64,000 nucleotides of DNA, taken from the NCBI GenBank assembly GCA_027318865.1, contig DAHVOJ010000003.1, forward strand, positions 10,025 to 74,024, read 5' to 3'. The stretch comes from a bacterium (GTDB taxonomy: Bacteria > SZUA-79 > Acidulodesulfobacterales > Acidulodesulfobacteraceae). Position 1 is the first letter of the stretch. Each line of letters starts with the position of its first letter. The notes beneath the pieces are model-generated. The model searched no databases. It worked only from the letters and a program-made list of their open reading frames with translations, and was not told the DNA's origin. This document shows positions 3,596 to 64,000 of this stretch, one piece after another. The position numbers and the translations under genes were made by a program.

Positions 3596-6500
3596 TTAAA
3601 TATTAACATAGCCGTATAATCGTTGCAAGACAATTTTAATTCCTTCCGTTTTATCCCGCATAGAATCATAATGTTTATGCCTGAACCTTATTTTAAATTC
3701 ATCTATAAAGTTAATTATATATTCCGACGAACATTCCTTATCGTTTACGAACTTAATCAGCGCCTCGAAAATAGAAGCTGCAGATTCGTGAAATTCCAGT
3801 ATAAACTCGGTCTCTTTTATTTCCATAAGACGAACTTTCGAGTTTTTCATATAAATTTTAAGTTCGGTAATTTTCAAAAGGTTTTCTACTGGTTCTTCGG
3901 TCCTGCCGAACCTGTCTTTCAGTTCGTTTTTTATATTTTCTACATCGTATATCGTAACGCAATTCATAAGTTTTCTATAAAAAGACATTTTGGTTTTTTC
4001 GTCGTTTATATATGAATCCGGGATATAAGCGGATATGGCGGTTTTAACCTCCGGGTTTATTTGTACCGGCAAGGTAATTCCGCGCATTTTTTCTATCTCT
4101 TCCCTAAGCATCTGCATACACATTTCAAGACCTACGGAGTTTATATGCCCTGATTGAGCGCCGCCGAGAATATTTCCGGCGCCCCTTATTTCCAAATCAG
4201 CCATAGCAAGTTTAAAACCGGAGCTTAATTCGCTGTAATCTTTTATCGCGTTCAGCCTTTTTATCCGCTCCTGACTTAAATCATCGAAAGCCGTCCCTAT
4301 GACCAGCAGACAGTATGCCTGTATATGAGATCTCCCGACTCTCCCTCTAAGCTGATACAGCTGGCTCAGACCGAACCGCTCGGCATTATTTATAACAATC
4401 GTATTTACGTTGGGATTATCTAGACCGGATTCTATTATAGCGGTAGAGAGGAGAATATCGTATCCTTTGTCGTAAAAAATATGCATAATATCCATAATTT
4501 CTTCGGAATCAAGCCGACCGTGAACAACCCCTATCCGCATATCAGGCATTATTTTTTTAAGCCTGCCGTAAATATAATCTAAATGGGATATTCTGTTGTC
4601 GATAAAATAAACCTGTCCGCCCCTGCTTATTTCTTTAAATATTGATTTTTTTATTATTTCTTCGTCGTAACCGGTGATTTCGGTAATAACGTTTTTTCTT
4701 CCGGAAGGCGGAGTACTTATAATGCTTAAGTCCCTTATCCCGGACATCGACATATACAGCGTCCTTGGAATAGGCGTAGCGCTCATGGCAAGAACGTCTA
4801 TGGAATATCTTATTTTTTTAATTTTTTCTTTCTGAAGCGCTCCAAACTTCTGTTCTTCGTCAATAATTAAAAGACCCAAGTCTTTATATTCTATTTTTTC
4901 CGATAATAATTTATGCGTACCTATAATTATATCTATTTCACCGGTTTTAATCCTTTTAATTATTTCTTTTTCTTCGTCTTTCTTAGCAAATCTCGAGATT
5001 CTGGCTATCTTTACCGGATATTTATCGAATCTTTTCTTAAAATTATTGTAGTGTTGATCTACCAAGATAGTCGTGGGAGCAATCAGCGCAACCTGTTTGC
5101 CGTCCATCGCCGCCTTAAAAGCCGCTCTTATGGCAACTTCCGTTTTCCCGAACCCGACGTCTCCGCATATTAACCTGTCCATCGGTTTATTGCTCTGCAT
5201 ATCCCGCAGGACCTCTTTTATTGCCTTTGCCTGATCTTCGGTTTCTTCAAACTCGAAATTTTCTTCGAATTCAAGGTAATCTTCGTCTTCGGCAGAGAAT
5301 GCAAAACCCCTGTCCGTCATTCTTTTTGCATAAAGAATTTTTAAATCTTCCGCTATCTCCTCGATTTTCTTTTTTGCTTTTATTTTTGCTTTTTCCCACG
5401 ATTTATTTCCAAGCCTGCTTAATGCAGGCGAATTATCTTCCGAAGCCGCTATATATTTATGTATAAGATATATTTTATCCGCCGGAACGAAAAGTTTGTC
5501 TCCTCCTTCGAAAATAAGCGTAAAATAGTCCGATGAAATTCCGCTAAGCGTTATATTTTTAATTTCGGTAAATTTGGCTATTCCAAACTCGTCATGAACT
5601 ACAAAATCTCCGGGATTAAGCTCTTCTATGCTTTTAAAATAATCGAATCCGGAAGTCCTTCGAGGAGTTATATTTTCGTCGATTACATCTAAATGTTCTC
5701 TAAAAAGCTCCTCCCCTTTAATAATTAAAAGTTTATTTTTTTTAGATATAAAACCGGACGAAACATTTCCGTTTTCAACCCTAAATAATCCGTCTTTTAC
5801 TTCTTCTTCTACTAAACCGATAGAATCAAAAATATTTTTAAGTCTTTCTTTATGAATTTCACTCTTTGAAACTATAATTATTTTATATTCTTTTTTTATA
5901 AGATTAAGAAATATTTTTTTTATTAAGGTTAAATTTAATTTGCCGCTCCCGTATTTCAATTTTTCGATAAAATCCATATTGCCTGATTTTATCGATGCCG
6001 ACAGCTCTCCTATACGATTGTTGTAATTCTCAACGCCGTAATATACTGCGGATTTTTTAAAATTAAAATAATAAAATTTATCTAAATTATTTAAAGCAAG
6101 GTTAAAGATGTTTTTGTTTTCGTTATCGCGGTTTAAAAATTCAAGAAGCTCGGTTTCAGGTTCTTCTATATATAAAATAGGGTTTTTAAGAGCTTCTAAG
6201 ATATTTAATTTTTTAGGATAATAATCGGAATTTATCGGAAATACGGTGAAACCGTCGATACTTTTAAAACTTATCTGCGTATTCAGGTCAAAATATCTTA
6301 AATCTTCCACAGTTTCGTCAAAAAAATCTATTCTTGCAGGATAAGAACCGTCTGCGTTAAATATGTCTATTATTTCGCCTCTGACCGCAAATTCGTTTTC
6401 GTTTTCTATCCGGTTCGTTCTTTCATAGCCGTAAGACGACAGGGTTTCTATAAGTTTGTCCCGTGAAAAATTAAAACCTTTCCTGATATGTATGAATGAA

Positions 6501-13680: not shown

Positions 13681-14724
13681 ATGGAATTAAAAATTGAAAA
13701 TGCCGCAATAGCCGACGAATCAAAGTTTAAATATAAAAGAATTTTAACCGGAGACAGACCGACGGGACCGCTTCATCTGGGGCATTATGCCGGCTCGTTA
13801 AAAAATAGGGTAAAACTTCAGGATAAATACGAAACTTTTATCTTAATAGCCGATATTCAAGCGCTTACGACAAATTTCGAACATCCCGAAAAGCTCGGAG
13901 AAAATATTTTTCTCGTTGCCTTAGACTATCTTTCCGCCGGAATAAACCCGAAATTATCCACAATAATAATACAATCCATGATACCTGAAATTTCCGAACT
14001 AACGACTTTTTTTTCTATGCTTATTTCAATAAATCCTTTAAGGCATAATCCTACGATTAAAACCGAAGCAAAAGAAAGGGGCTACAAAGAATTAACTTAC
14101 GGATTCCTAGGATATCCTGTAAGCCAGACTGCCGATATAGCTATTTTTAAAGCAGATTTAGTCCCTGTAGGCATAGACCAGCTTCCGCATATCGAACTCG
14201 CAAGAAAAATAGTCAGAAAATTTAACGAATTATATTGCGGAAAATTAATAGAACCTTCGGCTCTCATCGGCGAATCTCCTAAACTTATAGGACTCGACGG
14301 AAATTTAAAAATGAGTAAATCTTACGGAAACGCTATAAACCTTTCCGACGATTTTGATTCTATAAAAACTAAGATAAAATCCGCTCTGACCGACAAAAAC
14401 AGAATTCATCCGACCGACAAAGGGAATCCGGAAATCTGCACTATTTACTCTTATCACAAGGCTTTTTCCGAAGACGGTTTGATTAAAGAAACCGAATATA
14501 ACTGCAAAAACGGAAAAATAGGATGCGTAAAATGCAAGGAGAATCTGTTCGAAGTTATTAAATCGCTTCTCGAGCCTATGAACGAACAAAGAACTTATTA
14601 TTTAAAGAACAAAGATGAAGTATGGGACATTCTGTTTGCCGGAACAAAAAAAGCTAAAATAATTGCTTCGGAAACGATTAAAGAGGTTAAAAATTCGATG
14701 GAAATATTATATAAGACTTTATAA
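13681..14724 (+). CDS. trpS: Tryptophan--tRNA ligase
   Basis: 347 aa class I aaRS with a HIGH-type motif (GPLHLGHY), KMSKS and the overall TrpRS layout. Confidence 0.8.
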   Translation: MELKIENAAIADESKFKYKRILTGDRPTGPLHLGHYAGSLKNRVKLQDKYETFILIADIQALTTNFEHPEKLGENIFLVALDYLSAGINPKLSTIIIQSMIPEISELTTFFSMLISINPLRHNPTIKTEAKERGYKELTYGFLGYPVSQTADIAIFKADLVPVGIDQLPHIELARKIVRKFNELYCGKLIEPSALIGESPKLIGLDGNLKMSKSYGNAINLSDDFDSIKTKIKSALTDKNRIHPTDKGNPEICTIYSYHKAFSEDGLIKETEYNCKNGKIGCVKCKENLFEVIKSLLEPMNEQRTYYLKNKDEVWDILFAGTKKAKIIASETIKEVKNSMEILYKTL

Positions 14725-28436: not shown

Positions 28437-28910
28437 TTAAAATTTATTATTATAACATGAACCGCATAATCCGTAAAATTCAAGTCCGTAACTGTTTATA
28501 TAATAATTTTCGGTTAACTTTTCTTTTATTTTAGTCTCAAAAAATCCGGCAAAGTCAAACTCGCCTATTTTAACGTCTATTATTTTACCGCATTTTTCGC
28601 ATATAGCATGACCGTGCGCAGAAATATCTCCGTCGTAATGCACGGAATTCTGCAACGTTCTGATTTCTTTCACTTCATGGATAGAAGAAAGCATTGAAAG
28701 ATTCTTATAAACCGTATTTAACGAAATCATCGGATATGATTCCTTTAGCTTGCCGTAAACGTCCGTAGCGGAAGGATGACTTTTTGATTCCGCGACTATT
28801 TTAATAATTTCAAGTCTTTGCGGCGTCAGGCTGTAGCCCATTTTTTTGATTTTAGAGACAATATCGTTTAATCTCGAATCAGATTGTTTATTTTGTTTAG
28901 TTAAATTCAC
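28437..28910 (-). CDS. Fur-family metalloregulator
   Basis: Winged-helix N-terminus (TPQRLEIIKIV...HPSATDVY), metal-site pattern HGHAICEKCGKI and C-terminal CGSC. GTG start. Confidence 0.8.
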   Translation of the reverse strand: MNLTKQNKQSDSRLNDIVSKIKKMGYSLTPQRLEIIKIVAESKSHPSATDVYGKLKESYPMISLNTVYKNLSMLSSIHEVKEIRTLQNSVHYDGDISAHGHAICEKCGKIIDVKIGEFDFAGFFETKIKEKLTENYYINSYGLEFYGLCGSCYNNKF

Positions 28911-28988: not shown

Positions 28989-29066
28989 AATGTTTTCAGG
29001 CAATGTTTTCAGGCAATGTTTTCAGGCAATGTTTTCAGGCAATGTTTTCAGGCAATGTTTTCAGGC
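28989..29066. repeat. Perfect tandem repeat, 6 x 13 nt (AATGTTTTCAGGC)
   Basis: Counted directly: units at 28989, 29002, 29015, 29028, 29041 and 29054. Spans the stop codon of the 29048-32062 gene and the region upstream of the fur promoter. Confidence 0.95.
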
Positions 29067-32062
29067 TTAAATTTGAAATCTTTTATGCTGTCGAAAAAAG
29101 CTTCTAGTCTCGTAACATAACCTGCATCTGCATTATGCTCGTCTATTTCTATTTCAAGGTAAGGCTTATACTTCATATATTCGGCGAAAAAAGTCTTGAT
29201 AAAAGAATCGGGGCCGCAAGCATAATTAGTAACGTAAATTGCGTTTAGTATAGGATTTTCCATAACTATCTTTGCCGCAGATAAAATTTTATGACCGGAG
29301 TGCCAGAACATATTGTCGTGTTCCCCATAAATAGAAACTTCGCCTATATCAAGAAAATCCATAGGAATGACCGTTATCCCAAGAGAAGATACTTTATTTG
29401 AAATAGATAAATTAATTCCTTCATCTTGCGTATTATACGGTCTGCCGATTAATACGGTAATATCATCGTATTTTTCCATAACTTCTCTGCCTTTTGTTTT
29501 TAATTTTTCAAAAAAAATTCTTTGTTTTTCAAGAGCATCGTCAAAAGCAAAAATAATTTGCTTTTTTGAAATGCCGAATATTTTAAGGCTTTTGAAAAAA
29601 TGGTCAATCGTTAAATCATTATCGTGTTTATCGCCGAACAGTCTGACCTCAGGCGAAATAACATGTATTTTATTAAATTCCAGCGATGATTTAGTAATAT
29701 AGGGAACGCCCTGTATATAAGGACACTGATACGTATTTTCCTGAAAATCGTGATTTTTTTCTCTATTTATTAAAGCAGGCAGAAAAATTGCATCAATTTT
29801 TTTATCTATGAGGTTTTTAACGTGACCCGACACTACTTTTACGGGAAAGCACGTGTCCGTCACCGAAAGCATATTGGATGAATTTATTATAGACCTATTG
29901 GTTTCGGTTGATAAAATAACGTTAAAGCCGAGTTTTTTAAAAAATTCGTTATAAAACGGGAAAAGGTCGTATGTTTCGAGACAGAAAGGAACCCCTAAGC
30001 GAGGTTTTGAATAATCCGCTTCATTTTCCTCCGAATAACCTTCTAATAAAAGTTCCTTTCTGTATTTAAAAAAGTTCTCGCCTTTTTTTGTTTTAGATTT
30101 ATCTACTTCAAATATATCGCATCTTGCTCCGTAATAATGCGGACTTTCATTTTCTACGGTAACTTTATTGACGTCGCATAAATTTGAACATTTAAGGCAT
30201 TCAAAAGATTCCCTGACATATTTTCTGTTTCTTAAATCAAAGCCTGCAAACTTTGACTCGACATTATTACTAAAAGCTATAAGCGCGCTGCCGATAGCTC
30301 CGGTTACCTCATTATGCTCTGGAACTATAATTTTTTTTTCTAGAAGAGTTTCGAAAGCGCTGACAACGGCTTTATTCAGCGCGACGCCTCCCTGAAAAAG
30401 TATATGTTCGCCTATCTGTTTTCCGAGAACTACTTTATTTAAATAGTTCTCTACTATAGAATACGCAAGACCCGCAATAAGCTGGTCTTTATTTGCTCCT
30501 TTCTGCTGATGCGATACTAAGTCGGATTCCATAAATACGGTGCATCTGTCTCCAAGATTGCAAGAACTTGCGGCATTAAAAGCTTTTTCCGAAAATTCTT
30601 TTATAATATCTATATTAAGTTTCTGCGCCTGTTCCTCCAGAAACGAACCCGTACCGGCGGCGCATGCTTTATTCATTTCAAAATCTACCACGACTCCGTT
30701 TTGAATCCTTATATATTTAGAATCCTGTCCTCCTATTTCAAAAACGGTATCGGCGTCTTTATCGATAAATATAGATGCCGCGGCCTGCGCCGTTATTTCA
30801 TTTTTGACAATATCCGCCCCGACGTAATCGGCTATTAAATATCTTCCGGAACCTGTAGTACAGACTCCTTTGACGGTAACGTCCATGTTAAAATTTTTTA
30901 GTTCGAGATAAATTTCGTAAAGAGTGTCCCTCACTACTTCTATCGGTTTACCGTTGGTTTTTTTATATTTTTTAACCAAAAGATTTTTATTTTCGTCTAA
31001 TAGAACTATGTTTGTGGAAACCGAACCGGTATCTATACCTATATAAACCGGAATATTTTGACCGGAACGGCATTTAAGGGCATTCAAGTTATTTATTTCT
31101 GCGTTATTGAACCTGCCGTCCACATCTTGATCGACCTTTAACCGTTCCCTGTATCTCCCTGTAGATTTGTCTTTTTCTATAAATTCTTTAAGCGGTTCTA
31201 GTCCGTTAAACTTAAAATTTTTTTCGTTACGCGATATTATAGCTATACCTATAGCAGACATAACGGTGTGATGCTCCGGGATTATAAGTTCGCTATCTTT
31301 AAGTTCCAGAATGTCTTTGAACGCTCTGATCATGCCAAGGTTAAACGCAACTCCCCCTTGAAAAATCACGGGCTTCTCAAATTTTTTCCCCTTAGCTACC
31401 GTTCCTATAAAAGTTCTTGCGACGGCGTAACACAATCCGGCAACGATGTCCGGTATAGGCGTTGAAACCTGCTGTAAATGGATCATATCCGATTTGGCAA
31501 ATACCGTACATCTTCCCGCAATTTTAGCTGGATTTTTAGATTCTGAAGCCAGCCTTCCGAATTCATTCTCGATGTTTATATGAAGTCTTTCCGCCTGTTG
31601 GTCCAGAAAAGAACCCGTTCCTGCGGCGCATAAATCGTTTAATCCAAAATCTTCGAGAAAGATCTGACCTGTTTCTTTATTTTTTCTAAGCATGAGAAAT
31701 TTCGAATCCTGTCCGCCGATTTCGATAACGGTTTTAACATCCGGATAAAAATATTTTACGGCTTCGGTTTGCGCTACAAGTTCGTTTATATTAGGAATGC
31801 CTAAAACCTCGCCTACCGCGCGGGAACCTGAACCTGTAGCTCCTATGCCTGCAAAACAATCTTCGGGATATTCGTTAAAAATATTTTTTAAAACATTATA
31901 CGCCGTTTTTATAGATTCTCCGTTAGATCTTATATAATCTTTTATTAAAACATTGAGATTTTTGTCTAAAATTGCAAATTTAACGGTGGTTGAACCTATA
32001 TCTATGCCGAGATACAGTTCTTTAACCTCACCGCTTTTTATCTCTTTCATATTCTTTTCCAT
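29048..32062 (-). CDS. Fusion protein: two HgdC/BcrA-type activase ATPase modules plus a C-terminal dehydratase-related domain
   Basis: Two copies of DIGSTTVKF/DTGSVSTN, CAAGTGSFL and RCTVF motifs, then an uncharacterised C-terminal region of about 350 aa. Confidence 0.7.
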   Translation of the reverse strand: MEKNMKEIKSGEVKELYLGIDIGSTTVKFAILDKNLNVLIKDYIRSNGESIKTAYNVLKNIFNEYPEDCFAGIGATGSGSRAVGEVLGIPNINELVAQTEAVKYFYPDVKTVIEIGGQDSKFLMLRKNKETGQIFLEDFGLNDLCAAGTGSFLDQQAERLHINIENEFGRLASESKNPAKIAGRCTVFAKSDMIHLQQVSTPIPDIVAGLCYAVARTFIGTVAKGKKFEKPVIFQGGVAFNLGMIRAFKDILELKDSELIIPEHHTVMSAIGIAIISRNEKNFKFNGLEPLKEFIEKDKSTGRYRERLKVDQDVDGRFNNAEINNLNALKCRSGQNIPVYIGIDTGSVSTNIVLLDENKNLLVKKYKKTNGKPIEVVRDTLYEIYLELKNFNMDVTVKGVCTTGSGRYLIADYVGADIVKNEITAQAAASIFIDKDADTVFEIGGQDSKYIRIQNGVVVDFEMNKACAAGTGSFLEEQAQKLNIDIIKEFSEKAFNAASSCNLGDRCTVFMESDLVSHQQKGANKDQLIAGLAYSIVENYLNKVVLGKQIGEHILFQGGVALNKAVVSAFETLLEKKIIVPEHNEVTGAIGSALIAFSNNVESKFAGFDLRNRKYVRESFECLKCSNLCDVNKVTVENESPHYYGARCDIFEVDKSKTKKGENFFKYRKELLLEGYSEENEADYSKPRLGVPFCLETYDLFPFYNEFFKKLGFNVILSTETNRSIINSSNMLSVTDTCFPVKVVSGHVKNLIDKKIDAIFLPALINREKNHDFQENTYQCPYIQGVPYITKSSLEFNKIHVISPEVRLFGDKHDNDLTIDHFFKSLKIFGISKKQIIFAFDDALEKQRIFFEKLKTKGREVMEKYDDITVLIGRPYNTQDEGINLSISNKVSSLGITVIPMDFLDIGEVSIYGEHDNMFWHSGHKILSAAKIVMENPILNAIYVTNYACGPDSFIKTFFAEYMKYKPYLEIEIDEHNADAGYVTRLEAFFDSIKDFKFKPENIA

Positions 32063-41847: not shown

Positions 41848-41924
41848 TGGTGTGTCCGGAGGGATTCGAACCCTCTGCCTCAGGAGTCGGAGTCCTGAAC
41901 TCTATCCGGATGAGCTACGGACAC
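41848..41924 (-). tRNA. tRNA-Arg (anticodon CCG)
   Basis: Hand-folded cloverleaf: acceptor GTGTCCG/CGGACAC, anticodon arm CAGGA-CTCCGAC-TCCTG, T arm GAGGG-TTCGAAT-CCCTC, encoded CCA. Confidence 0.85.
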
Positions 41925-54062: not shown

Positions 54063-54139
54063 GCGTTCATAGCTCAGTCGGATAGAGCAACAGCCTTCTA
54101 AGCTGTGGGTCGCAGGTTCGAATCCTGCTGGACGCACCA
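54063..54139 (+). tRNA. tRNA-Arg (anticodon TCT)
   Basis: Hand-folded: acceptor GCGTTCA/TGGACGC, D arm GCTC...GAGC, anticodon loop CTTCTAA, T arm GCAGG-TTCGAAT-CCTGC, encoded CCA. Confidence 0.9.
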
Positions 54140-54374: not shown

Positions 54375-54515
54375 TTTTTTCCTTAATTAAAGTTTTTTGC
54401 CTTTCGCTTTTGCCTTTCTCCCCCTTTGCTAAGGGGGCCGGGGGGTTAGGTGCTTTTAAATTTAAAAGATTTTGACCGCCGTTCCTCGCAATTTTCAGAA
54501 AAGTTATCAACAAAA

Positions 54516-54547
54516 TTAGATAGCCGGCTTTTTGGCTGTCTAATTTT
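54516..54547. terminator. Hairpin with T-tracts on both strands (candidate bidirectional terminator downstream of the CRISPR array)
   Basis: TTAGATAGCC (54516-54525) pairs with GGCTGTCTAA (54534-54543) with one G-U. It is flanked by CAAAA on the left and TTTT on the right. Confidence 0.4.
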
Positions 54548-54752
54548 GCGTAGCATTGATTTTTAGGAAATTTGATAGCGTTTTTTGCTGTCAAATTTCC
54601 GTTAAAAAAATCAATGTTGATTACTTTTCGTTTTGAAAATTGCCTCGCTTTAATGCCTATCGTAAGTCTATAATGTGATAATTCGAGTGCAATAAAATGC
54701 TTTTTACAATAATATAACGTTTTAAGGAAGTGGATAAAATGTACGAAGCACA

Positions 54753-55041
54753 ATCTACAATAGTAGAAATTACATATAACGTTTTAAGATATTGGTATTT
54801 ATTCGATACCTTATTCATCTACAACAGTAGAAATTGTATATAACGATTCAAGATTTAGTTCTTTAACCTTTTGCACCACCATCTACAACAGTAGAAATTG
54901 TATATAACGATTCAAGTCCCGCCTCATGTCCGTATGTATCATATCTACAACAGTAGAAATTGTATATAACGATTCAAGTCAACGAACACCAACCAACTCG
55001 CAAAAATCTACAACAGTAGAAATTGTATATAACGATTCAAG
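54753..55041 (-). CRISPR. Type V-A CRISPR array: 5 repeats of 36 nt, spacers of 26-28 nt, plus a decayed sixth repeat at 54691-54726
   Basis: Plus-strand repeats ATCTACAACAGTAGAAATTGTATATAACGATTCAAG at 54817, 54881, 54943 and 55006, and a 5-mismatch copy at 54753. The reverse complement ends AATTTCTACTGTTGTAGAT, the Cas12a crRNA handle. Confidence 0.95.
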
Positions 55042-55045
55042 AGAT

Positions 55046-55074
55046 AATATATGTTATTTTAAAAGGTTTGTCAA
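55046..55074 (-). promoter_or_regulatory. Putative CRISPR leader promoter TTGACA-N17-TATATT
   Basis: On the minus strand, TTGACA is at 55069-55074 and TATATT at 55046-55051. The -10 ends 4 nt before the first repeat. Confidence 0.55.
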
Positions 55075-55156: not shown

Positions 55157-58100
55157 TTATGAGTTCCCGCCCTGTGCGAATTGCAACCATTCATCGCCGG
55201 ACAACCGCAAATCGACTTTTCTTATATTTTCTGACTGTTTTATTCTGTTAAGCAGTATCAGTCCTTTACGAGCTATATTATAAGCTCCGTTTGCGGCAGC
55301 GTTTTCCGGTAAAGCTTTGTCGTTAGGCTTGCGGCTATCGTAAAATTTTCCTGACTTATCCATTGCTGGCGATATAATAAAATCGCCGTTACGCATTTGA
55401 ACGGTAAGCCTGAATAACGATAAAAGCCTTACAAAAAAATCTTTATCGTTTAGCGACAAAATAAATTCTTCTAAATCGCCTTTATAATCAACTGAGTAAT
55501 CAGAAAATAAATTTTTAAATTCTTTGGTTAGGTCTATTTTTCTAAATTTCGGCTGATTATTATCGTTAAACCTTTCGATTCTTTCGCCGTAAGTATAAAC
55601 CGTCCATTCAGTCCTTGCGCTCTGGATCTTGTCTTTATCCGTAAAATTATCATAATTAAACGTAAATTCAAATAAATTCGTTTTTTCGTTATAGGAGATA
55701 TTTTTAAACTTACCGAAAAAGTCTTTAGATTTATTCACGTTAAAATAACGGGTATCAAATAAATTAACAAAGCCCGTGACAGGGTCTATATCCGTTACTT
55801 TATATGGCGATACGTAAAATATCATTCCGCTTTCTTTTCCTATTCTTTCAAAACTTACGAATTTATTTGCGAGTTGCAAAGGTTTAAGCAGTCCGCCTAA
55901 TTCCTCCGGTTCTTTCTTTTTATCTGCGTAAAAATTAAGCTTATCTATAAGCATTTTCTCGAATTTCTGATAAACAGGTTTTTCTATCGCAGACCTCTCC
56001 CTGATAAAATCATAACTTAAATCTTCCATTGCGCATACTGCGTTATACCTTACCATTAAGGCTGCTATTTTCGATATTACATTACTTAAATAGCCTTCCT
56101 TTAATTCTTTAATATTGCCTATAACGCCCCAATTAACCCTTGCTCCATCCCTTTCTTCGCCTCTTTTTTCGAGTTTTTCCATATAGTTGATATTTTTTCC
56201 GTTATAGCCTTCTATCTCGTTCAAAGAATGTTGTTCTATGATATTACCCGCTGAATCCAAAACGGTAATATAAACTAAATGATTTTCCGCCCTGTGAACG
56301 CCTACGACGTTAATATCGTTAGATTTTATAAAATCCCTACATATATCGTTAATATTGCCGCGATCCGGAGCATTAGGATTTAATGTAATAGGAACGTTAA
56401 ATTGAAACTTATCGAAAGCAAACCTGCGGTCTTTAATTATTGCGTAATTGAATTTACCCTTTAGTTCTTCGGCATGATGTCCGTTTTTCATTATTTCTTC
56501 GGAGTAGTTTAAGGATTTTTTTCTGTAAAACATTTCCGCCCCGCCGTTAAGCTTATAAACGGTATCTTTGAGGTTGCGTTCGTCAAAAAGCATTTTAAAA
56601 TAAAGGGTGTGCAGATTAGGCGTTCCCTTGCTATAAACCGAAAAATCTTTATTATAAATCTTAAATAAATAAACTTTGCCGTCTTTTACGAGTTCGTTGA
56701 TATAGCTTGCTGTTATATCCCTAAAAGTTATGACGTAGCCTTGAGAATCGACGTCATCGTAAAATTCGTTTATTTTTTGGTATTCTTCAGTCGGTCTAAA
56801 ATTAAAATTATAACATGACCATTCGGGATTTTTAGAGATAGATTCTTTGTAAAAATCTATTAACGTATGTAAATCGCCAGTATTAAAATTATCGCCGGCT
56901 TTAAAAGTTCCGTCGTTATATATTCTTATTATTTCATCGGACGGTTCGTATTTAGATTTATTGCCTTCGGCGAAAAAAACTTTTGGCAGCATCATATACG
57001 ATTTCGGCAGTAATTTATATTCCATTTTTTTATATGCGTCTTCGCCGTATTCCGCCGAAATAGCGTTTTTAAAGATTTTATTATGTTCTTTATTTATAAT
57101 GCCGAGATAGTAATAATCGCCTTTACTGAACAATACGGAAGCGTTATCTATTTCTTTATTTACGTCCCATCCCGCTAAAAGCGTGCTGTTGCCGAAGTTT
57201 AGTTTTATTTTTTCTACCGAATACGGTTTTTTAGTGATAAAATTCCGGACTTCGTTATAAAGTTTTACCGCTCCGTCCATGCCGTCAAATATACGGTCGA
57301 AAGACTCGTAAAAAACAAGGTCTTTATCTAAGCCTTCAAAATCGAAAACCTTAAACGTTCTATGTAGAGCTATAATATTATCCATTAAGCCTTTTAAATC
57401 CGGAACGCTGTTTTGGTTATTAATCCATAATTCGTAAGACCGTCTTATATCTGCTACGGTATTTATTATTTTGTTATAGAAAAATTCAAACATAAAGTCT
57501 TTATCGGCGTTAGGTAACGTCGCCTGAACATTTGCAATACTAAAATAGGCTATTTTTAAAAATTCTTTTTCGGGATTTTTAGATTTAGGATTATTCGCAA
57601 TATAATTTTCTAATAAAACGTTCTTTAGAAAGTTAAAATCCTTAAACAATTCGTGGGATAAGTCCGTAAGAAACCTGCTTTTAATATAAATGCCGGTATA
57701 ATCGTAGCTTTTGCCGTCCGGCGCGAATATGTCGGCCGCGGATGCAAGAACGGATTTAATATTATTATAAAATTCGACTACGGCGTTATTCATCGAGTCT
57801 TTATTTTTAAATCCTTCAGTTATCCAAGCAGGAACATTCTTATCGCCCAAAATCTGCTTTTTAAGCTGTTTAAGCATGGGAACGGATTTGCCGTCTAATT
57901 TATTAGACTGACGGAATAAATTTACTTTTTCGTTAAATCCTTGTATTTTTTTGCCGTCTTCTAAGCTTTCTCCGCCTATCATTTTATTATAAAGGTCTAT
58001 GCCTGACTGAGTTAGGGTTTTAGAAAACCATTCGGTAGAAAACATATCCTCGACTTTTTCGCCATTTAATAAAGGCTCTACGGATTTTTTAATATCTTCT

Positions 58101-58699
58101 ATTAATTCGGGATAAGAATTTTTAATAGCGTTAAAATTTTTCTTATTTATGATGAATAAAGGCAGGTTCTCGTGTATTACCCTGTATGCGTGGCTTGCAT
58201 GCTTTTCCTCTGCGCTATAAATATTTTCTCTCGTTTTGTAATAATTTACAAAATAAGTCGTAAAAGTTTTAAATTTATTTATGAGATTTTTTTCTTCTTC
58301 TGTTTTCGCAAATTCAGGAAGTTCTTTGCGAATAAGGTCGGCAGATCCAAGCAGTTTAAATTTGGGATTTTTAGCCAAATAAGATACTACCTCCTTACGC
58401 AGTTTTGCCTTAATGTCGTTAAATTCTTTTTCGTCTTTTTCATTCCTCGGAAAGAGATTATATTTTTCCTCATAAATTAACAAATTTTCTAAACTTAATG
58501 AAACGCCGGCAAGGGATTCATTAATAAAATTTTTAAGCCAAGTGTCTGCAATTTTTTTAACTTTTTTAAAGTCTTCGGCAAGTTTCTCGTCTTCCGTTAA
58601 TATCCCCGCCTTTTCGATATTATTTAACGTGTCGCCTTGCGGAATAAGGCTAAAGCGTAAGGTTTTTGAAGTTGAAAATAAATTAGTAAATGATTTCAT
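55157..58699 (-). CDS. cas12a: Cas12a (Cpf1) orthologue, 1180 aa, with substituted RuvC-I and RuvC-III catalytic Asp residues
   Basis: N-terminus MKSFTNLFSTSKTLRFSLIPQG. Also GWDVNKE, MLPKVFF, LFKIYNKDFSVYSKGTPNLHTLYFKMLFDERNL, AVCAMEDL, EKPVYQKFEKMLIDKLNF, DPVTGFVN, VQMRN, ANGAYNIARKG. AGGAGA SD 5 nt upstream. Cas12a-type array 115 bp downstream. Confidence 0.93.
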   Translation of the reverse strand: MKSFTNLFSTSKTLRFSLIPQGDTLNNIEKAGILTEDEKLAEDFKKVKKIADTWLKNFINESLAGVSLSLENLLIYEEKYNLFPRNEKDEKEFNDIKAKLRKEVVSYLAKNPKFKLLGSADLIRKELPEFAKTEEEKNLINKFKTFTTYFVNYYKTRENIYSAEEKHASHAYRVIHENLPLFIINKKNFNAIKNSYPELIEDIKKSVEPLLNGEKVEDMFSTEWFSKTLTQSGIDLYNKMIGGESLEDGKKIQGFNEKVNLFRQSNKLDGKSVPMLKQLKKQILGDKNVPAWITEGFKNKDSMNNAVVEFYNNIKSVLASAADIFAPDGKSYDYTGIYIKSRFLTDLSHELFKDFNFLKNVLLENYIANNPKSKNPEKEFLKIAYFSIANVQATLPNADKDFMFEFFYNKIINTVADIRRSYELWINNQNSVPDLKGLMDNIIALHRTFKVFDFEGLDKDLVFYESFDRIFDGMDGAVKLYNEVRNFITKKPYSVEKIKLNFGNSTLLAGWDVNKEIDNASVLFSKGDYYYLGIINKEHNKIFKNAISAEYGEDAYKKMEYKLLPKSYMMLPKVFFAEGNKSKYEPSDEIIRIYNDGTFKAGDNFNTGDLHTLIDFYKESISKNPEWSCYNFNFRPTEEYQKINEFYDDVDSQGYVITFRDITASYINELVKDGKVYLFKIYNKDFSVYSKGTPNLHTLYFKMLFDERNLKDTVYKLNGGAEMFYRKKSLNYSEEIMKNGHHAEELKGKFNYAIIKDRRFAFDKFQFNVPITLNPNAPDRGNINDICRDFIKSNDINVVGVHRAENHLVYITVLDSAGNIIEQHSLNEIEGYNGKNINYMEKLEKRGEERDGARVNWGVIGNIKELKEGYLSNVISKIAALMVRYNAVCAMEDLSYDFIRERSAIEKPVYQKFEKMLIDKLNFYADKKKEPEELGGLLKPLQLANKFVSFERIGKESGMIFYVSPYKVTDIDPVTGFVNLFDTRYFNVNKSKDFFGKFKNISYNEKTNLFEFTFNYDNFTDKDKIQSARTEWTVYTYGERIERFNDNNQPKFRKIDLTKEFKNLFSDYSVDYKGDLEEFILSLNDKDFFVRLLSLFRLTVQMRNGDFIISPAMDKSGKFYDSRKPNDKALPENAAANGAYNIARKGLILLNRIKQSENIRKVDLRLSGDEWLQFAQGGNS

Positions 58700-58774: not shown

Positions 58775-59005
58775 TTATAGATTTTTATAGATGTATGTCG
58801 CAATGACGAATCCTAAAGATCCGAGCCAAGACAATACATAACCGCCTATAGCATTTAAAGTTATCAAAAGCCCGAATTTAGTCCCTTCAAAATGTTTCGG
58901 TGAAAAGCCGGAGTATTTCCCGCCTTGTATGAATAATTCAATGCTCATGAAGAAAAAAAGTATTACTGCCGCATAATAAGCGTAATTTTTAACCTTTTCA
59001 AACAT
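58775..59005 (-). CDS. Small two-TMS membrane protein
   Basis: 76 aa with two hydrophobic helices (YYAAVILFFFMSIELFI and GGYVLSWLGSLGFVIATYI). GGGGG SD. 75 bp upstream of cas12a on the same strand. Confidence 0.5.
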   Translation of the reverse strand: MFEKVKNYAYYAAVILFFFMSIELFIQGGKYSGFSPKHFEGTKFGLLITLNAIGGYVLSWLGSLGFVIATYIYKNL

Positions 59006-59734: not shown

Positions 59735-60382
59735 TTATATTAGATTAATTATTTCGTTAAATAAGTCTTTCACTTCCGCCGTAGCCTTATTGTCCGTATT
59801 TAGTTCGCTTACGCCCAAGCCTTCGGATATAGACTTCCTATATACAGCGCGGTCCTTTAGATAGGAACCTAAAATCTTAACGTCCGGAAAGTCTTTGAGG
59901 AACTCAAGCATTTCGTCTTTTTCTTTGGACTTCCAGTTTGCCGTTATCTTGTTTAAGACGACGTATGCCTTTAGTTTTGAGTTAAAAGCCTGTGCTTCCT
60001 GATACAGCTTATATATCTTTTCGAAGCTCCATGCGTCTAACTGGCTCGTTATTAGCGGTATAATAAACTTATCCGATATCAGCATGGACTTACGCATTTC
60101 TATCGAGTCCCTGCCGCCCGTGTCTATCAGGACGATATCAAAACCGCTTTCTAAAGCTTTGACGTCTTTATCAAGAGCGCCGCCTGTTTTCTCTATGACG
60201 ATTATTTCCGGCAAACCCGCAGGATTTTCTCTGCGGGTATTAGAAAACATAGTCGTAGATTTTTGAATATCGGCGTCTATAAGAAGAACCTTTTTTCCGG
60301 ACCCGGCAAATTCTGTTGCAAGGTTAATCGCAATAGTAGATTTGCCAACGCCGCCTTTTTCGTTTCCGATAGTTATAATCAT
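59735..60382 (-). CDS. parA: ParA-family partition ATPase (small, plasmid type)
   Basis: Deviant Walker [29 protein letters not shown]. 215 aa. Confidence 0.88.
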
Positions 60383-61724: not shown

Positions 61725-64000
61725 TTAATGCAACTGCTGCTGCTCTTGCTCTTGCCTTTGTTCCTGCTGTTCGTGTTCTATCTCTTGATTTTGTTCTTGC
61801 TCCTGTTCCTGCTCTACCGCCTGTTCTATCTGTTCTTCTTTATCTATTTTTGAGACTTCTTCTTCGGTAAGCGCAAACGCAAGATTTTTGACGTTTTCTG
61901 AAAGCTCGTTCCTAAAGTCTTCGGTTTCTTTTGCAAACTCGATATTTTCTTTGAATTTCTCAACTTCGACTTCAGTTCCGTAAATCTTAATTTCATCCGT
62001 CGATCTCGTGCCTGCGACGTAAAACTTTTCCTCGAAATTTTCGGAATAAGCGCCGCTATTTAACGAATACAAGGTTTTATTGACGGTCTCGCCCTGACTC
62101 TTATAAGTCGTCAAAGCATATCCCAAATCGAAATTTTTATATTCTTCCGGATTAAAAATTACTACGTCGCCGTTTTCTTTTATTGCCGTGATATTACCGG
62201 CTTCGCCTATCGATTTAACGGTCGCCAGTTCGCCGTTATTGACGTTAAGATTTTTATCATTTTTCAGGAAGACGATTTTATCGTTCTCGGCCACTTCGAT
62301 ATCTTTCTCGATATATACCTGTATATTATCTTTGTTCTTATTTGTAAGATTGAAGCTTTTTTCTTCGCCGTCTTCGGCCTGAAGCTTTAGAATGTTTTTG
62401 TCTTTATCGATGTCTTCTACCGTATAAACCTGATAAGTTTTATCCGCTATGATTTTTTCACCAGGATTATACGATTCGACAAATCCGGCGTTTTCGGCCG
62501 ATATAACCCTATTTTCGTAAACTTTAAAATTTTGTCCGTTTTTGCCGATTAGTTCCTTTTCTTTTAAGCCTTCGACAATAAGAGAATTCAAAGCGTTCCT
62601 TTCTAAGTTAGTATCAACTAAAATTAATGTATTTTTCGATACGTCCTTAAAATACTCTTCCTTGATAGCATTAAACTTTGCAGTTAAGGCCTCAAGGTTA
62701 TTAGTCTCGCTCTCTTTAAAGCTTATGACGTTTCCAGCGCTCTCTATTTTTTCGAAAGCTCCTTTAAAATCTTTGCCGGCTAAAGTCAAGGCAATACGTT
62801 CCTGAGTATCATTATGATAGCGGACCGGAATATCCATATTAGTATATACGCCGAGCCCAGACAATTTGGACGCTTCCGAAGCTTCTTTAAAGAAATCGCC
62901 GCGCTCGATAGACTTAAACTGTTTTTCGTCGCCGATATAATTTATTTTTGAAGCGTCCAAAGAATTAAGGAATTTAGCCTGTTTGTCTGAAACCATCGAC
63001 GATTCATCTATGAAGAGAACCGTTTTTTCGTCGAATGTAATTTTGCCGTTTTCGACGAGATTTTGAAGCCTTGAAATAGTATAAATGTTTTTTATATTAG
63101 AATCTTTTAAGACTTCTGTAGCCTTGCCGGTATGGCTCGCTCCTATGACTGTATAACCTTTATTTTCGAGAAATTCATTTATTAAATTTAAGGCGTTTGT
63201 TTTTCCGGTTCCTGCGTCTCCCTGAATAATGTTAAATTTATATCTACTCGACAATATATTATGACCCATCGAGACTTGAGACTCCGTTAAGGTTTTGCTG
63301 TTTTTTTCCTGCCAAGTTTCTATCTTTCTACTAATATCTTTCTCTGTGAAATAGGTTTTTGATTCCGCATTTTGCAAAATAGTATTGTAATTCTGCTTAA
63401 TATCCCGCAAAACTTCTTTAGTCGTAAAATATTTCGTAGAATAAGTATGTTTTACCTCTACCACATCTTTATTCGATTTAATTGCAGAAGCAATTACCTG
63501 GACGTCGGTTTTACCAAAATTATGCTTAATAGTTACGTTTTCGGCTTTTTCATATTTATAGGTTCGGTAATTTTCGGTTATGTCCTTAAGCCCTTGCCTT
63601 AGCGCCGCTTTAGTGTTTTTAAACTTTTCGAATTCGCTTTCTTTGGGCTGCGCTATATTATTTTTAGCGGTTTCCACGACGTTATTAAGTTTTTTAAGTT
63701 CTTCATTGGATAGCCTTTGTTCCACGAATTTCTTAGTTTCTTCGTATGTCGGATTATGCTCCTTGCGCTGACGCGTGGCTTTTTCGGCAAGCTGCCTTAA
63801 ATCTTTTTCCGTCATTGTCGGATATTTTTTTCTTAGTTCTTCTACCTTATTATCGATTTCCGCTTGCCTGGTAGAGAACCGCTCTTTTAAATCTTTGAGT
63901 TCTTCGCCTTCAAGCTTAATATCCGTCATAGCCTTAGAGCGGTCGGAGTCTATCGTATAACCCAGCGTTTGCAATTTCTGCGCAAATTTATTCTCCTGTA
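61725..64000 (-). CDS. Conjugative relaxase-associated helicase (TraA/TrwC-type RecD-like domain), N-terminus outside the window
   Basis: Walker A IIQGDAGTGKTN, Walker B LFIDESSMV, TYKSQGETV, AGTRSTDEI. The frame stays open upstream of the track's TTG at 63974 to the window edge. The C-terminus has a Q/E repeat tail. Confidence 0.7.
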   Translation of the reverse strand, partial: QENKFAQKLQTLGYTIDSDRSKAMTDIKLEGEELKDLKERFSTRQAEIDNKVEELRKKYPTMTEKDLRQLAEKATRQRKEHNPTYEETKKFVEQRLSNEELKKLNNVVETAKNNIAQPKESEFEKFKNTKAALRQGLKDITENYRTYKYEKAENVTIKHNFGKTDVQVIASAIKSNKDVVEVKHTYSTKYFTTKEVLRDIKQNYNTILQNAESKTYFTEKDISRKIETWQEKNSKTLTESQVSMGHNILSSRYKFNIIQGDAGTGKTNALNLINEFLENKGYTVIGASHTGKATEVLKDSNIKNIYTISRLQNLVENGKITFDEKTVLFIDESSMVSDKQAKFLNSLDASKINYIGDEKQFKSIERGDFFKEASEASKLSGLGVYTNMDIPVRYHNDTQERIALTLAGKDFKGAFEKIESAGNVISFKESETNNLEALTAKFNAIKEEYFKDVSKNTLILVDTNLERNALNSLIVEGLKEKELIGKNGQNFKVYENRVISAENAGFVESYNPGEKIIADKTYQVYTVEDIDKDKNILKLQAEDGEEKSFNLTNKNKDNIQVYIEKDIEVAENDKIVFLKNDKNLNVNNGELATVKSIGEAGNITAIKENGDVVIFNPEEYKNFDLGYALTTYKSQGETVNKTLYSLNSGAYSENFEEKFYVAGTRSTDEIKIYGTEVEVEKFKENIEFAKETEDFRNELSENVKNLAFALTEEEVSKIDKEEQIEQAVEQEQEQEQNQEIEHEQQEQRQEQEQQQLH

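Follow-up and report, generated by a model that had tools for sequence, protein, structure and literature searches.

A Cas12a with a dismantled RuvC site as a putative RNA-guided DNA binder of a bacterial mobile element

What function can a Cas12a protein retain once the residues by which its family cuts DNA have been replaced? This question is raised by dcas12a, a gene located in a 64,000-nucleotide stretch (positions 10,025 to 74,024) of contig DAHVOJ010000003.1, assembly GCA_027318865.1, from a bacterium of the Acidulodesulfobacteraceae. The whole stretch is referred to below as the window. The gene encodes a full-length Cas12a homologue in which the Asp/Glu/Asp (D/E/D) triad of the RuvC nuclease site reads His/Glu/Ala (H/E/A), and an original prediction, made from the DNA letters, had proposed a protein that binds DNA without cutting it. 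The evidence favours, with a probability of roughly 60%, a naturally nuclease-dead Cas12a that would act as an RNA-guided DNA-binding interference effector of a mobile element, in the manner of CRISPR interference, or CRISPRi. The coordinates of all features are collected in Table 1.

The identity of the protein is supported at several levels. It matches all five Cas12a Pfam domains (REC1, REC2, PI, RuvC and NUC; PF18501, PF21918, PF22222, PF18516 and PF18510), scores 1152 bits with NCBIfam TIGR04330 cas_Cpf1 (cutoff 300) and is also recognised by the PADLOC Cas12a models. Its top sequence matches in the PDB are Cas12a without exception, with 36-47% identity to solved structures, and are led by the synthetic ancestral ReChb, followed by the Lb2, Lb, Fn, Mb and As proteins. 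These alignments are collinear across residues 2-1176, in agreement with the collinearity with Fn, As and Lb Cas12a described in the original prediction. Judged by its sequence, the window protein is a Cas12a, yet it lacks the catalytic D/E/D signature of the family. Assignment to the Cas12a2, Cas12a3 or Cas12a4 clades, which retain the RuvC motifs and have RNA as their target (PMC12851939), was considered and rejected on account of the Cas12a PI domain and the lysines that read the protospacer-adjacent motif (PAM).

To locate functional residues, segments 680-1180 and 490-600 were re-aligned to PDB chains, and an HMMER alignment was used for mapping onto FnCas12a; chain 5mga_A was read in native Fn numbering because its alignment coordinates equal those of 8y0b_A, a 1300-residue chain of native length. 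Directly read codons and the Fn profile alignment agree that His802 and Ala1135 replace the RuvC-I and RuvC-III aspartates, as predicted, and that Glu892 of RuvC-II is the only triad residue left. In the 2015 work of Zetsche, the Fn substitutions D917A and E1006A are said to abolish cleavage, and D1255A to reduce it strongly. These three residues constitute the RuvC catalytic triad of FnCas12a (PMC9508855). The surrounding motifs have drifted as well, with IDRGER changed to VHRAEN and DADANGAY to NAAANGAY, and Asn1133 standing at Fn D1253. In the Nuc domain, Arg1103 is kept, and a six-residue stretch found after QMRN-S in other Cas12a proteins is missing, which leaves a gap at Fn ~1220-1225; the drift, the retained arginine and the shortened Nuc domain had all been recognised from the sequence at the outset. 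The lid has also diverged. In FnCas12a, this segment spans F1005-K1021, and K1013 within it contacts D917 (PMC9508855). Its replacement by Ile899 is given little weight, because a K1013-type lid lysine is not universal among active Cas12a proteins.

The same substitutions recur in related proteins. A protein search found the H/E/A triad in P0001, P0002, P0003 and P0005, which are 72-88% identical to the window protein, as well as in P0004, a 941-aa fragment identical to it. An identical window protein is present in two other assemblies, namely the NCBI metagenome-assembled genome (MAG) contig GCA_021837065.1 and an ENA assembly. Further out, P0006 (62% identity) has an N/E/A triad, and the next relative, P0007 (56%), is D/E/D, as are relatives at or below ~50% in the same comparison. 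The RuvC-I codon forms a single-step series from GAC in P0007 through AAC in P0006 to CAC in the H/A clade; among the H/E/A orthologues His is always encoded by CAC, and Ala by GCC or GCT. Between these orthologues, the ratio of nonsynonymous to synonymous substitution rates (dN/dS, pairwise Nei-Gojobori) is 0.07-0.13 for the whole gene, and regionally 0.07-0.21 in REC, 0.06-0.14 in WED/PI and 0.06-0.135 in RuvC-Nuc, with dS ranging from 0.56 to saturation. Such low values indicate long retention by selection after the catalytic residues were lost. Together with the identical copies and the H/E/A triad of diverged orthologues, they uphold the earlier argument for an old loss instead of a read error. 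The window Cas12a is real, conserved and selectively maintained, and its DNA-cutting site appears dismantled.

Other scans for related loci yielded little. Single-protein peptide patterns gave no match in GTDB genomes and JGI metagenomes, the patterns being too specific. A degenerate DNA motif for G[IV][HN]R[AG]E.HL[IV]Y returned only the already known MAG contig from GTDB genomes and none from IMG/VR; among metagenome contigs, it detected one unrelated Cas12a with a D-to-N replacement (L012).

The remodelling associated with the loss is concentrated around the cleavage site. The clade was compared with 244 D/E/D homologues, restricted to positions with a conservation of at least 85%; of the 15 changes specific to dead lineages at such positions, 13 fall in the RuvC/Nuc half. 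The changes absent from P0007 comprise D802H, G804A, R806N/S (Fn G919 and R921 for the latter two), I814L, E847G, G897D/N and K904A in the lid, Q956E, T968V/S969T/K970D in the TSK motif, S1105G with the loop deletion, and D1135A. Outside this half, only H768N and G152N belong to the set, and REC-lobe changes at conserved positions are mostly common to the nuclease-intact P0007 as well. P0006 has some of these changes (N802, A904, VTD, A1135, the deletion and N768) and retains G804, R806, E847 and Q956. Inactivation is therefore older than the split between P0006 and the H/A clade, and remodelling continued afterwards.

The regions that handle the guide and the PAM present a different picture. 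An ungapped alignment of residues 490-598 equates Lys515 and Lys573 with Fn K613 and K671, which are PAM-reading lysines (PMC6507119), and thereby bears out their predicted conservation; the two lysines and the 5'-TTTG natural PAM of a single protospacer (see below) both point to T-rich PAM reading. The site that would process precursor CRISPR RNA (pre-crRNA) had to be relocated. H697, K702 and K727, originally named as the processing triad, are conserved, but the PNLHT histidine (H697) aligns to Fn 804, and the ribonuclease site of FnCas12a, H843/K852/K869 (PMC9508855), falls opposite query residues ~731-756. The candidate segment there has the subfamily form S.E...KGHH...LK.KF.Y.IIKDRRF, ~6-9 residues shorter depending on the orthologue, which also occurs in nuclease-intact relatives, including the Cas12a of Sulfurimonas/Campylobacterales. 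GHH740/741, K746/K748 and K756, the likely equivalents of the Fn triad, are kept across the dead clade, and their conservation suggests that pre-crRNA processing is probably intact.

Guides would be supplied by a CRISPR array on the same strand as dcas12a, ~115 nt downstream of its stop codon. The repeat contains AATTTCTACTGTTGTAGAT, a generic V-A handle, and its 3' part is predicted to fold as a Cas12a handle stem-loop of the AAUUUCUACU-loop-GUAGAU type. The leader contains a putative sigma-70 promoter. Past the degenerate array end lie two hairpin-forming inverted repeats, at 54511-54548 (15-nt arms, 8-nt loop) and 54555-54611 (25-nt arms, 7-nt loop), which may be terminators of the array transcript.

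The array changes over time in the manner of an immune memory. Loci L004 and L005 encode an identical protein behind which the leader is also 100% identical, and they carry two extra spacers between this leader and the first spacer of the window. Gain at the leader end is a signature of polarised acquisition, found here in a locus without adaptation genes of its own. Other arrays of the clade contain 5, 7 and 17 unrelated spacers. In L004 (6029-6343) and L005 (3805-4119), the shared spacer is followed by a pair, CTAAATTC.../TTTTGCGAG..., that recurs to the contig end; this may be a genuine duplication or else a loop created by short-read assembly. Neither cas1, cas2 nor cas4 is present in the ~9 kb of the element within the window (from the tRNA gene to the window end), and cas4-cas1-cas2 is absent from L001-L008, that is, from every H/A locus examined. 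Next to P0006 (L009 794-6179), cas4, cas1 and cas2 directly follow the effector, so that a complete adaptation module accompanies a dead effector.

One target could be identified, and it lies in the window itself. A spacer of L007, whose effector P0002 is 82% identical to that of the window, matches a PAM-flanked protospacer within the 76-aa gene that adjoins dcas12a on its upstream side. By the authors' own estimate, ~2e-7 such matches would be expected by chance (36 spacers against ~300 kb, both strands). The one mismatched position changes a Phe codon synonymously (TTC vs TTT), as expected if the spacer came from an allele of the 76-aa gene. The L007 CRISPR RNA (crRNA) would pair with the template (+) strand of this gene, which is the orientation that gives engineered ddCpf1 its strongest elongation block (PMC5460296). 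Because the upstream region of L007 is not homologous to that of the window, the target lies in another element. Spacer turnover and a PAM-flanked protospacer fit a working guide-directed DNA binder.

The genetic surroundings point to a mobile element. Upstream, on one strand, three small open reading frames (ORFs) without family match are followed by a gene for a ParA-type partition ATPase, three further small ORFs and a relaxase-helicase gene. Beyond the array, a 66-aa ORF and tRNA-Arg(tct) precede a cluster of secretin, pseudopilin and type II secretion system (T2SS) E and F genes. The first 42 kb of the window (1-42 kb) are ordinary chromosome, with genes for Mfd, PPDK, GlyS, AspRS, GroEL and PGM; the GroEL is 96-98% identical to that of 'Deltaproteobacteria bacterium' MAGs and 89% to that of Candidatus Acididesulfobacter guangdongensis. 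The ParA and relaxase genes, together with the chromosomal genes and the tRNA, indicate that dcas12a resides on a conjugative or mobilisable element that is integrated in the chromosome or was assembled with it.

All H/A loci consist of cas12a and an array in differing backbones. In L001-L003, ParB and three hypotheticals lie upstream of cas12a, and genes for a type IV secretion system coupling-protein fragment, a topoisomerase, an HD protein and a secretin lie downstream of it. Replication and repressor genes of phage/plasmid type are present in L002, and the gene upstream of cas12a is another one in L006 and L007; between backbones, these upstream genes show no homology. Apart from cas12a itself, the window flanks have just two ORFs in common with the clade loci, the secretin (44% identity) and a gene of the pilus cluster. 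Beside cas12a, these backbones share no conserved ORF, which argues that there is no conserved partner protein.

Several further observations concern these surroundings. ParA and/or ParB genes stand just upstream of a dead cas12a in three unrelated backbones (window 59735-60382, L001 598-1407, L014 100-1907). Two tRNA-Arg genes, ccg (41848-41924) and tct (54063-54139), bracket a major facilitator superfamily transporter gene and the type IV pilus/T2SS-like cluster (~44-53.7 kb); the cluster may belong to the element or to the host, and its secretin is 44% identical to the one near the dead cas12a of L001. In the chromosomal part, six perfect tandem copies of a 13-nt unit (AATGTTTTCAGGC) at 28989-29066 cover the first ~19 nt of a BadF/BcrA-type activase gene (29048-32062, minus strand) and the upstream intergenic region, with ORF 28437-28910 (minus strand) on the other flank.

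Table 1. Features of the dcas12a locus, in window coordinates
Feature	Position	Strand	Basis
dcas12a, full-length Cas12a homologue, 1180 aa, H/E/A RuvC triad	55157..58699	-	ORF, Pfam/NCBIfam/PADLOC, PDB-chain alignment
His802, codon CAC, at Fn D917 (RuvC-I)	56294..56296	-	codon read directly and Fn alignment
Glu892, equivalent of Fn E1006 (RuvC-II), kept	56024..56026	-	Fn alignment
Ala1135, codon GCC, at Fn D1255 (RuvC-III)	55295..55297	-	codon read directly and Fn alignment
Lid, residues 892-907, EDLSYDFIRERSAIEK vs Fn EDLNFGFKRGRFKVEK; Ile899 at Fn K1013	55979..56026	-	alignment
Nuc-domain QMRN-G-D junction, residues 1103-1106; Arg1103 (Fn R1218) kept	55382..55393	-	alignment (R1218 by HMMER)
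Lys515, equivalent of Fn K613, PAM readout, WED domain	57155..57157	-	ungapped alignment of residues 490-598
Lys573, equivalent of Fn K671, PAM readout, PI domain	56981..56983	-	ungapped alignment of residues 490-598
Candidate pre-crRNA ribonuclease segment, residues 740-756, HHAEELKGKFNYAIIKD, short form of Fn H843...K852...K869	56432..56482	-	alignment
CRISPR array: repeat CTTGAATCGTTATATACAATTTCTACTGTTGTAGAT (36 nt) in four identical copies, plus one degenerate and one truncated terminal copy; spacers 26-28 nt	54712..55041	-	
Sigma-70-like match TTGACA-17-TATATT, 11/12, in leader, 5 nt before first repeat	55046..55074	-	consensus match only
Gene for a predicted membrane protein of 76 aa, next upstream of dcas12a, targeted by sister-element spacer	58775..59005	-	
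Protospacer (58862-58887) and TTTG PAM (58888-58891), 25/26 to L007 spacer 16	58862..58891	-	spacer matching
ParA-type partition ATPase of element	59735..60382	-	family match
MobF/TraA-like conjugative relaxase-helicase, N-terminus beyond window end	61725..63974	-	family match
tRNA-Arg(tct), between array end of element and type IV pilus/T2SS-like cluster; possible integration site	54063..54139	+	

Loss of the RuvC aspartates is not confined to this clade. A family survey aligned 270 homologues, composed of the 120 best word-index matches and, from clusters at 50% identity, the 150 best representatives; 244 of them are D/E/D, and ~18 further lineages beyond the clade are non-canonical at RuvC-I (H, N, S, T, K, A) and/or RuvC-III (A, Y, E, T). 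These point to independent events, because the nearest neighbour is canonical in nearly all cases (P0150 and P0220 pair together). Single-residue cases on single metagenomic contigs may include errors, which cannot account for the multiply degenerate ones. The retained RuvC-II Glu and the mostly polar RuvC-I replacements (H, N, S, T, K) suggest that a non-catalytic role is kept at these positions. Where the surroundings of independent dead lineages were examined, they are consistent with a mobile-element link: parA-parB stand immediately before the gene of P0131 (S/E/A; L014), P0161 (S/E/A; L015) lies in an integrase-rich island with HipAB nearby, and P0150 (N/E/D; L017) is flanked by HicA/IS200 TnpA on one side and by pol III subunits, RadC, ArdC and PcfM on the other. 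P0017 (H/E/D) keeps cas4. The Cas12a fragment of L012 (RRZU011036510.1; 12-1286, 1846-2331) has the RuvC-I D-to-N change, a Nuc Arg replaced by Lys (QMKNS) and an intact RuvC-III Asp, and is followed by cas2 and a 7-repeat array. The impression that such a protein would be unprecedented was therefore overstated, given these ~18 lineages and a published precedent from 2021 (bioRxiv 10.1101/2021.08.16.456562).

The favoured reading, an RNA-guided DNA binder serving a mobile element, implies the following course of events. The array would be transcribed from the leader promoter, and its transcript cut by the WED-domain ribonuclease site of the protein, whose residues are conserved, into guides with a Cas12a 5' handle. 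Through its PAM lysines, the loaded protein would find TTTV-flanked targets and form an R-loop, for which the one TTTG protospacer is supporting evidence. With two of three metal-binding carboxylates lost and the lid, Nuc loop and TSK motif remodelled, two-metal DNA hydrolysis should be impossible, and the bound complex would instead block transcription of the target, possibly also its replication or transfer. New spacers, whose polarised gain at the leader end is observed, would be added by an adaptation module acting in trans. Targets would be rival mobile elements of the same host lineage, as in the one case found, and silencing without cutting would spare the chromosome lethal breaks if the rival were integrated like the window element. 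The original prediction of array processing and PAM-dependent binding without cutting thus stands in outline, supported by the old loss of two aspartates, the PAM lysines, the handle and the promoter-preceded array, but not in its choice of ribonuclease residues.

Several points weigh against this reading. The absence of all DNase activity is extrapolated by homology from mutants of other orthologues, and His802 with Glu892 may in principle still bind metal. The RuvC-II Glu is present in 269 of the 270 homologues, the remaining one being truncated, and is never replaced in any dead lineage. An AlphaFold2 model built from a 27-sequence alignment is weak (predicted local distance difference test score 70.8, predicted template modelling score 0.37), with little confidence at the lid, at the TSK motif and over residues 1102-1132, and the pocket is not readable from it; Foldseek with this model recovers the Cas12a fold locally (E ~1e-72) at template modelling scores of only 0.28-0.43, and the fold matches are all to Cas12a proteins. 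The catalytic His of the processing site cannot be named by sequence, because HMMER and MAFFT put the gap at different places. The promoter is a consensus match in a region without enrichment of such matches. Finally, one protospacer was found for 36 spacers: the concatenated spacers had no match among PLSDB plasmids and one chance-level match (E = 5) among INPHARED phages, and the four window spacers, as exact 20-mers, had none in IMG/VR. Few targets are unsurprising, because the lineage is uncultured.

Other explanations must be weighed against a DNA-binding interference effector. One of them, also raised as an option in the original prediction, is that the dead Cas12a marks a site at which a partner enzyme acts, as Cas12k does in CRISPR-associated transposons. 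Such a role has been proposed for nuclease-inactive Cas12a proteins that are associated with Rpn and have a topoisomerase, a polymerase subunit and helicases nearby (bioRxiv 10.1101/2021.08.16.456562), and it would accord with the topoisomerase downstream in L001, the pol III subunits in L017, the occurrence of the cas12a-array cassette in different backbones, and the position of the sole known protospacer, 87-163 bp upstream of the cassette start in the window element. Against this stand the lack of any gene conserved beside cas12a in the clade, the absence of Pfam/NCBIfam matches to a transposase, Rpn or TnsB/C/TniQ among the neighbours (the element extends past the window end), and the absence of terminal inverted or direct repeats flanking the cassette. 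In addition, the arrays turn over as immune arrays do, where a homing function would call for a fixed guide. A recruitment or transposition module is therefore considered unlikely.

The protein might instead be a dominant-negative decoy that loads the crRNAs of an active V-A system, of the host or of a rival, with the same repeat, and either sequesters them or shields the protospacers of its element. The generic V-A handle makes cross-loading plausible, and a phage Cas9 with an inactivated RuvC and intact HNH has been proposed as a biomimicry anti-CRISPR (PMC10910872); moreover, the nuclease-intact P0007 occurs in ERZ27233564, numbered beside ERZ27233565, which carries the window protein. On the other side, the protein retains a promoter-preceded array of its own that gains spacers, P0006 keeps a full adaptation module, and the sister-element spacer hits a rival element with a proper PAM, which is offensive and not protective. 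This explanation, too, has only a small probability.

Equally improbable for the window is a regulator with fixed guides that controls genes of its own element or host, comparable to TldR, dCas12f or CreR-type circuits. In its favour are loci in which solitary repeat handles replace the array. In L008 (P0005, of the same clade), three dispersed handles lie at 3763-3798, 3827-3862 and 4149-4184, and in L015 (P0161, an independent S/E/A lineage; the same in L016) at 13786-13821, 13952-13987 and 14105-14140, with no regular array in either. They are located downstream of the gene, 64-322 nt apart, and the third of L008 ends 38 nt before the next start codon; they look like fixed guides or processed 5' untranslated regions. 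The par genes beside dead cas12a in three independent backbones could also be read in this sense. In contrast, window spacers have no match at up to five mismatches in the 64-kb window or the examined loci, and the solitary guides of L008 and L015 gave AT-rich chance-level matches only, with no convincing target. The window array also varies at its leader end between samples, which a fixed regulator would not tolerate. A fixed-guide role is thus plausible for L008 and L015, but not for the variable array of the window.

Still less probable is that the protein remains a nuclease, in which His802 and Glu892, perhaps with Asp897 or Glu901 of the lid, support some catalysis, residual or altered, for example nicking, Mn-dependent cutting or cleavage of RNA. 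The Glu that is kept throughout the ~18 substituted lineages, the mainly polar RuvC-I replacements, the purifying selection that persists in the RuvC-Nuc region and the new acidic residues of the lid, which may serve as extra pocket carboxylates, are all compatible with this. On the other hand, both aspartates are reportedly needed in the orthologues studied. P0006 has Asn at the site of His802, so His is not required, and the residues of the Nuc loop, the TSK motif and the R921 equivalent are gone as well. A decaying pseudogene or a sequencing or assembly artefact can be practically ruled out, since the 1180-aa ORF is intact, the identical protein occurs in three assemblies, and diverged orthologues combine the same substitutions with low dN/dS.

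A wider evolutionary scenario may be sketched tentatively, at slightly less than even odds. In it, Cas12a, the archetype of a DNA-cutting type V enzyme, would have turned into an RNA-guided DNA binder without nuclease activity on many independent occasions. In the present clade, the ancestor would still have had cas4-cas1-cas2; conjugative and integrative elements would then have taken up effector and array, updating the array in trans and silencing one another without breaking the shared host chromosome. The system would be a class 2 counterpart of the warfare between plasmids that carry type IV-A3, and a naturally optimised dCas12a.

If biochemistry agrees, type V-A would need an inactivated variant beside V-C, V-M, V-K and V-B3, and class 2 would provide a convergently evolved case of CRISPR interference without cutting between mobile elements, derived from the best-known cutter, with P0006 as a visible intermediate in which a dead effector still has its adaptation module. 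A Cas12a long selected as a binder, with a remodelled lid, Nuc loop and non-target-strand pocket, could also be a scaffold that suits CRISPRi, base editors or recruitment better than point-mutated nucleases do. Annotation pipelines label such proteins plainly as 'Cas12a/Cpf1' (TIGR04330 equivalog), which keeps dead lineages from view in databases. What goes beyond the routine in the present case are the intermediate with an adaptation module, spacer turnover that would proceed in trans, a protospacer that sets element against element, and the many independent dead lineages.

Comparison with known systems places the locus between canonical type V-A and several nuclease-free relatives. Canonical Cas12a (Fn, Lb, As) shares with it the five Pfam domains, the TIGR04330 equivalog, the repeat handle, the PAM lysines and the position of the array, downstream of the gene, but has a D/E/D triad where the window protein has H/E/A and a remodelled lid, TSK motif and Nuc loop; the window locus also differs from a canonical one in lacking cas4-cas1-cas2 and in residing on a conjugative or mobilisable element. 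No experimental characterisation of a natural dead Cas12a was found in the literature searched, a search that left subscription journals mostly outside. The closest precedent is the putative nuclease-inactive Cas12a that Rybarski et al. (2021) described beside Rpn-family PDDEXK genes, as candidate non-Tn7 CRISPR-associated transposons; it has Ile at As D908, ~24% identity to AsCas12a and retained ribonuclease residues, and the same study reported inactivating mutations in 8% of Cas12 genes without cas1/2 neighbours (bioRxiv 10.1101/2021.08.16.456562). Both lack the RuvC-I Asp and adaptation genes and have nucleic-acid-processing genes nearby, and the ribonuclease residues retained in the earlier case are probably kept in the window protein too. 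The Rpn-associated protein has its adjacent Rpn/PDDEXK gene and atypical self-targeting spacers, whereas the window lineage combines His at RuvC-I with loss of the RuvC-III Asp, has no Rpn gene in the sequenced flanks, and shows a spacer-gaining array and a target in a rival element.

Among other Cas12 families, Cas12m (V-M) and Cas12c (V-C) likewise use crRNA-guided binding to block transcription without target cleavage, as is proposed here from sequence. In work by Huang and by Wu in 2022, their RuvC site is said to be retained and used for pre-crRNA processing; in the window protein that site is dismantled, and processing would use a separate WED ribonuclease site. Type V-M is often plasmid-borne. 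The available part of the 2025 classification describes repeated RuvC inactivation in type V, demonstrated for V-C and V-M and predicted for V-O and V-P; it places V-K in transposons and assigns Cas12b3, with its mini-array, to a conjugative plasmid. An inactivated variant of V-A is not mentioned in that part (Makarova et al. 2025, PMC12669027). Cas12b3 is alike in being an inactivated variant within a nuclease subtype, on a conjugative plasmid and with a short array; it belongs to V-B, needs a trans-activating crRNA and is substituted in RuvC-I and RuvC-II, and the same part of that source reports no spacer turnover for it (PMC12669027). Type IV-A3 shares the proposed logic: it is plasmid-borne, has no adaptation module, obtains spacers in trans and silences rival plasmids without a nuclease. 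Its complex, of class 1, has several subunits, includes a DinG helicase and is unrelated in sequence (Benz et al., bioRxiv 10.1101/2023.06.23.546257). Engineered dCas12a/ddCpf1, such as AsCpf1 E993A, keeps ribonuclease activity and PAM-dependent binding and represses transcription, best with guides to the template strand (PMC5460296), and the same behaviour would be expected here. The engineered protein carries one point mutation, often of the Glu, in a scaffold optimised as a nuclease, whereas the natural clade keeps the Glu, has lost both Asp residues and would have evolved for a long time as a binder.

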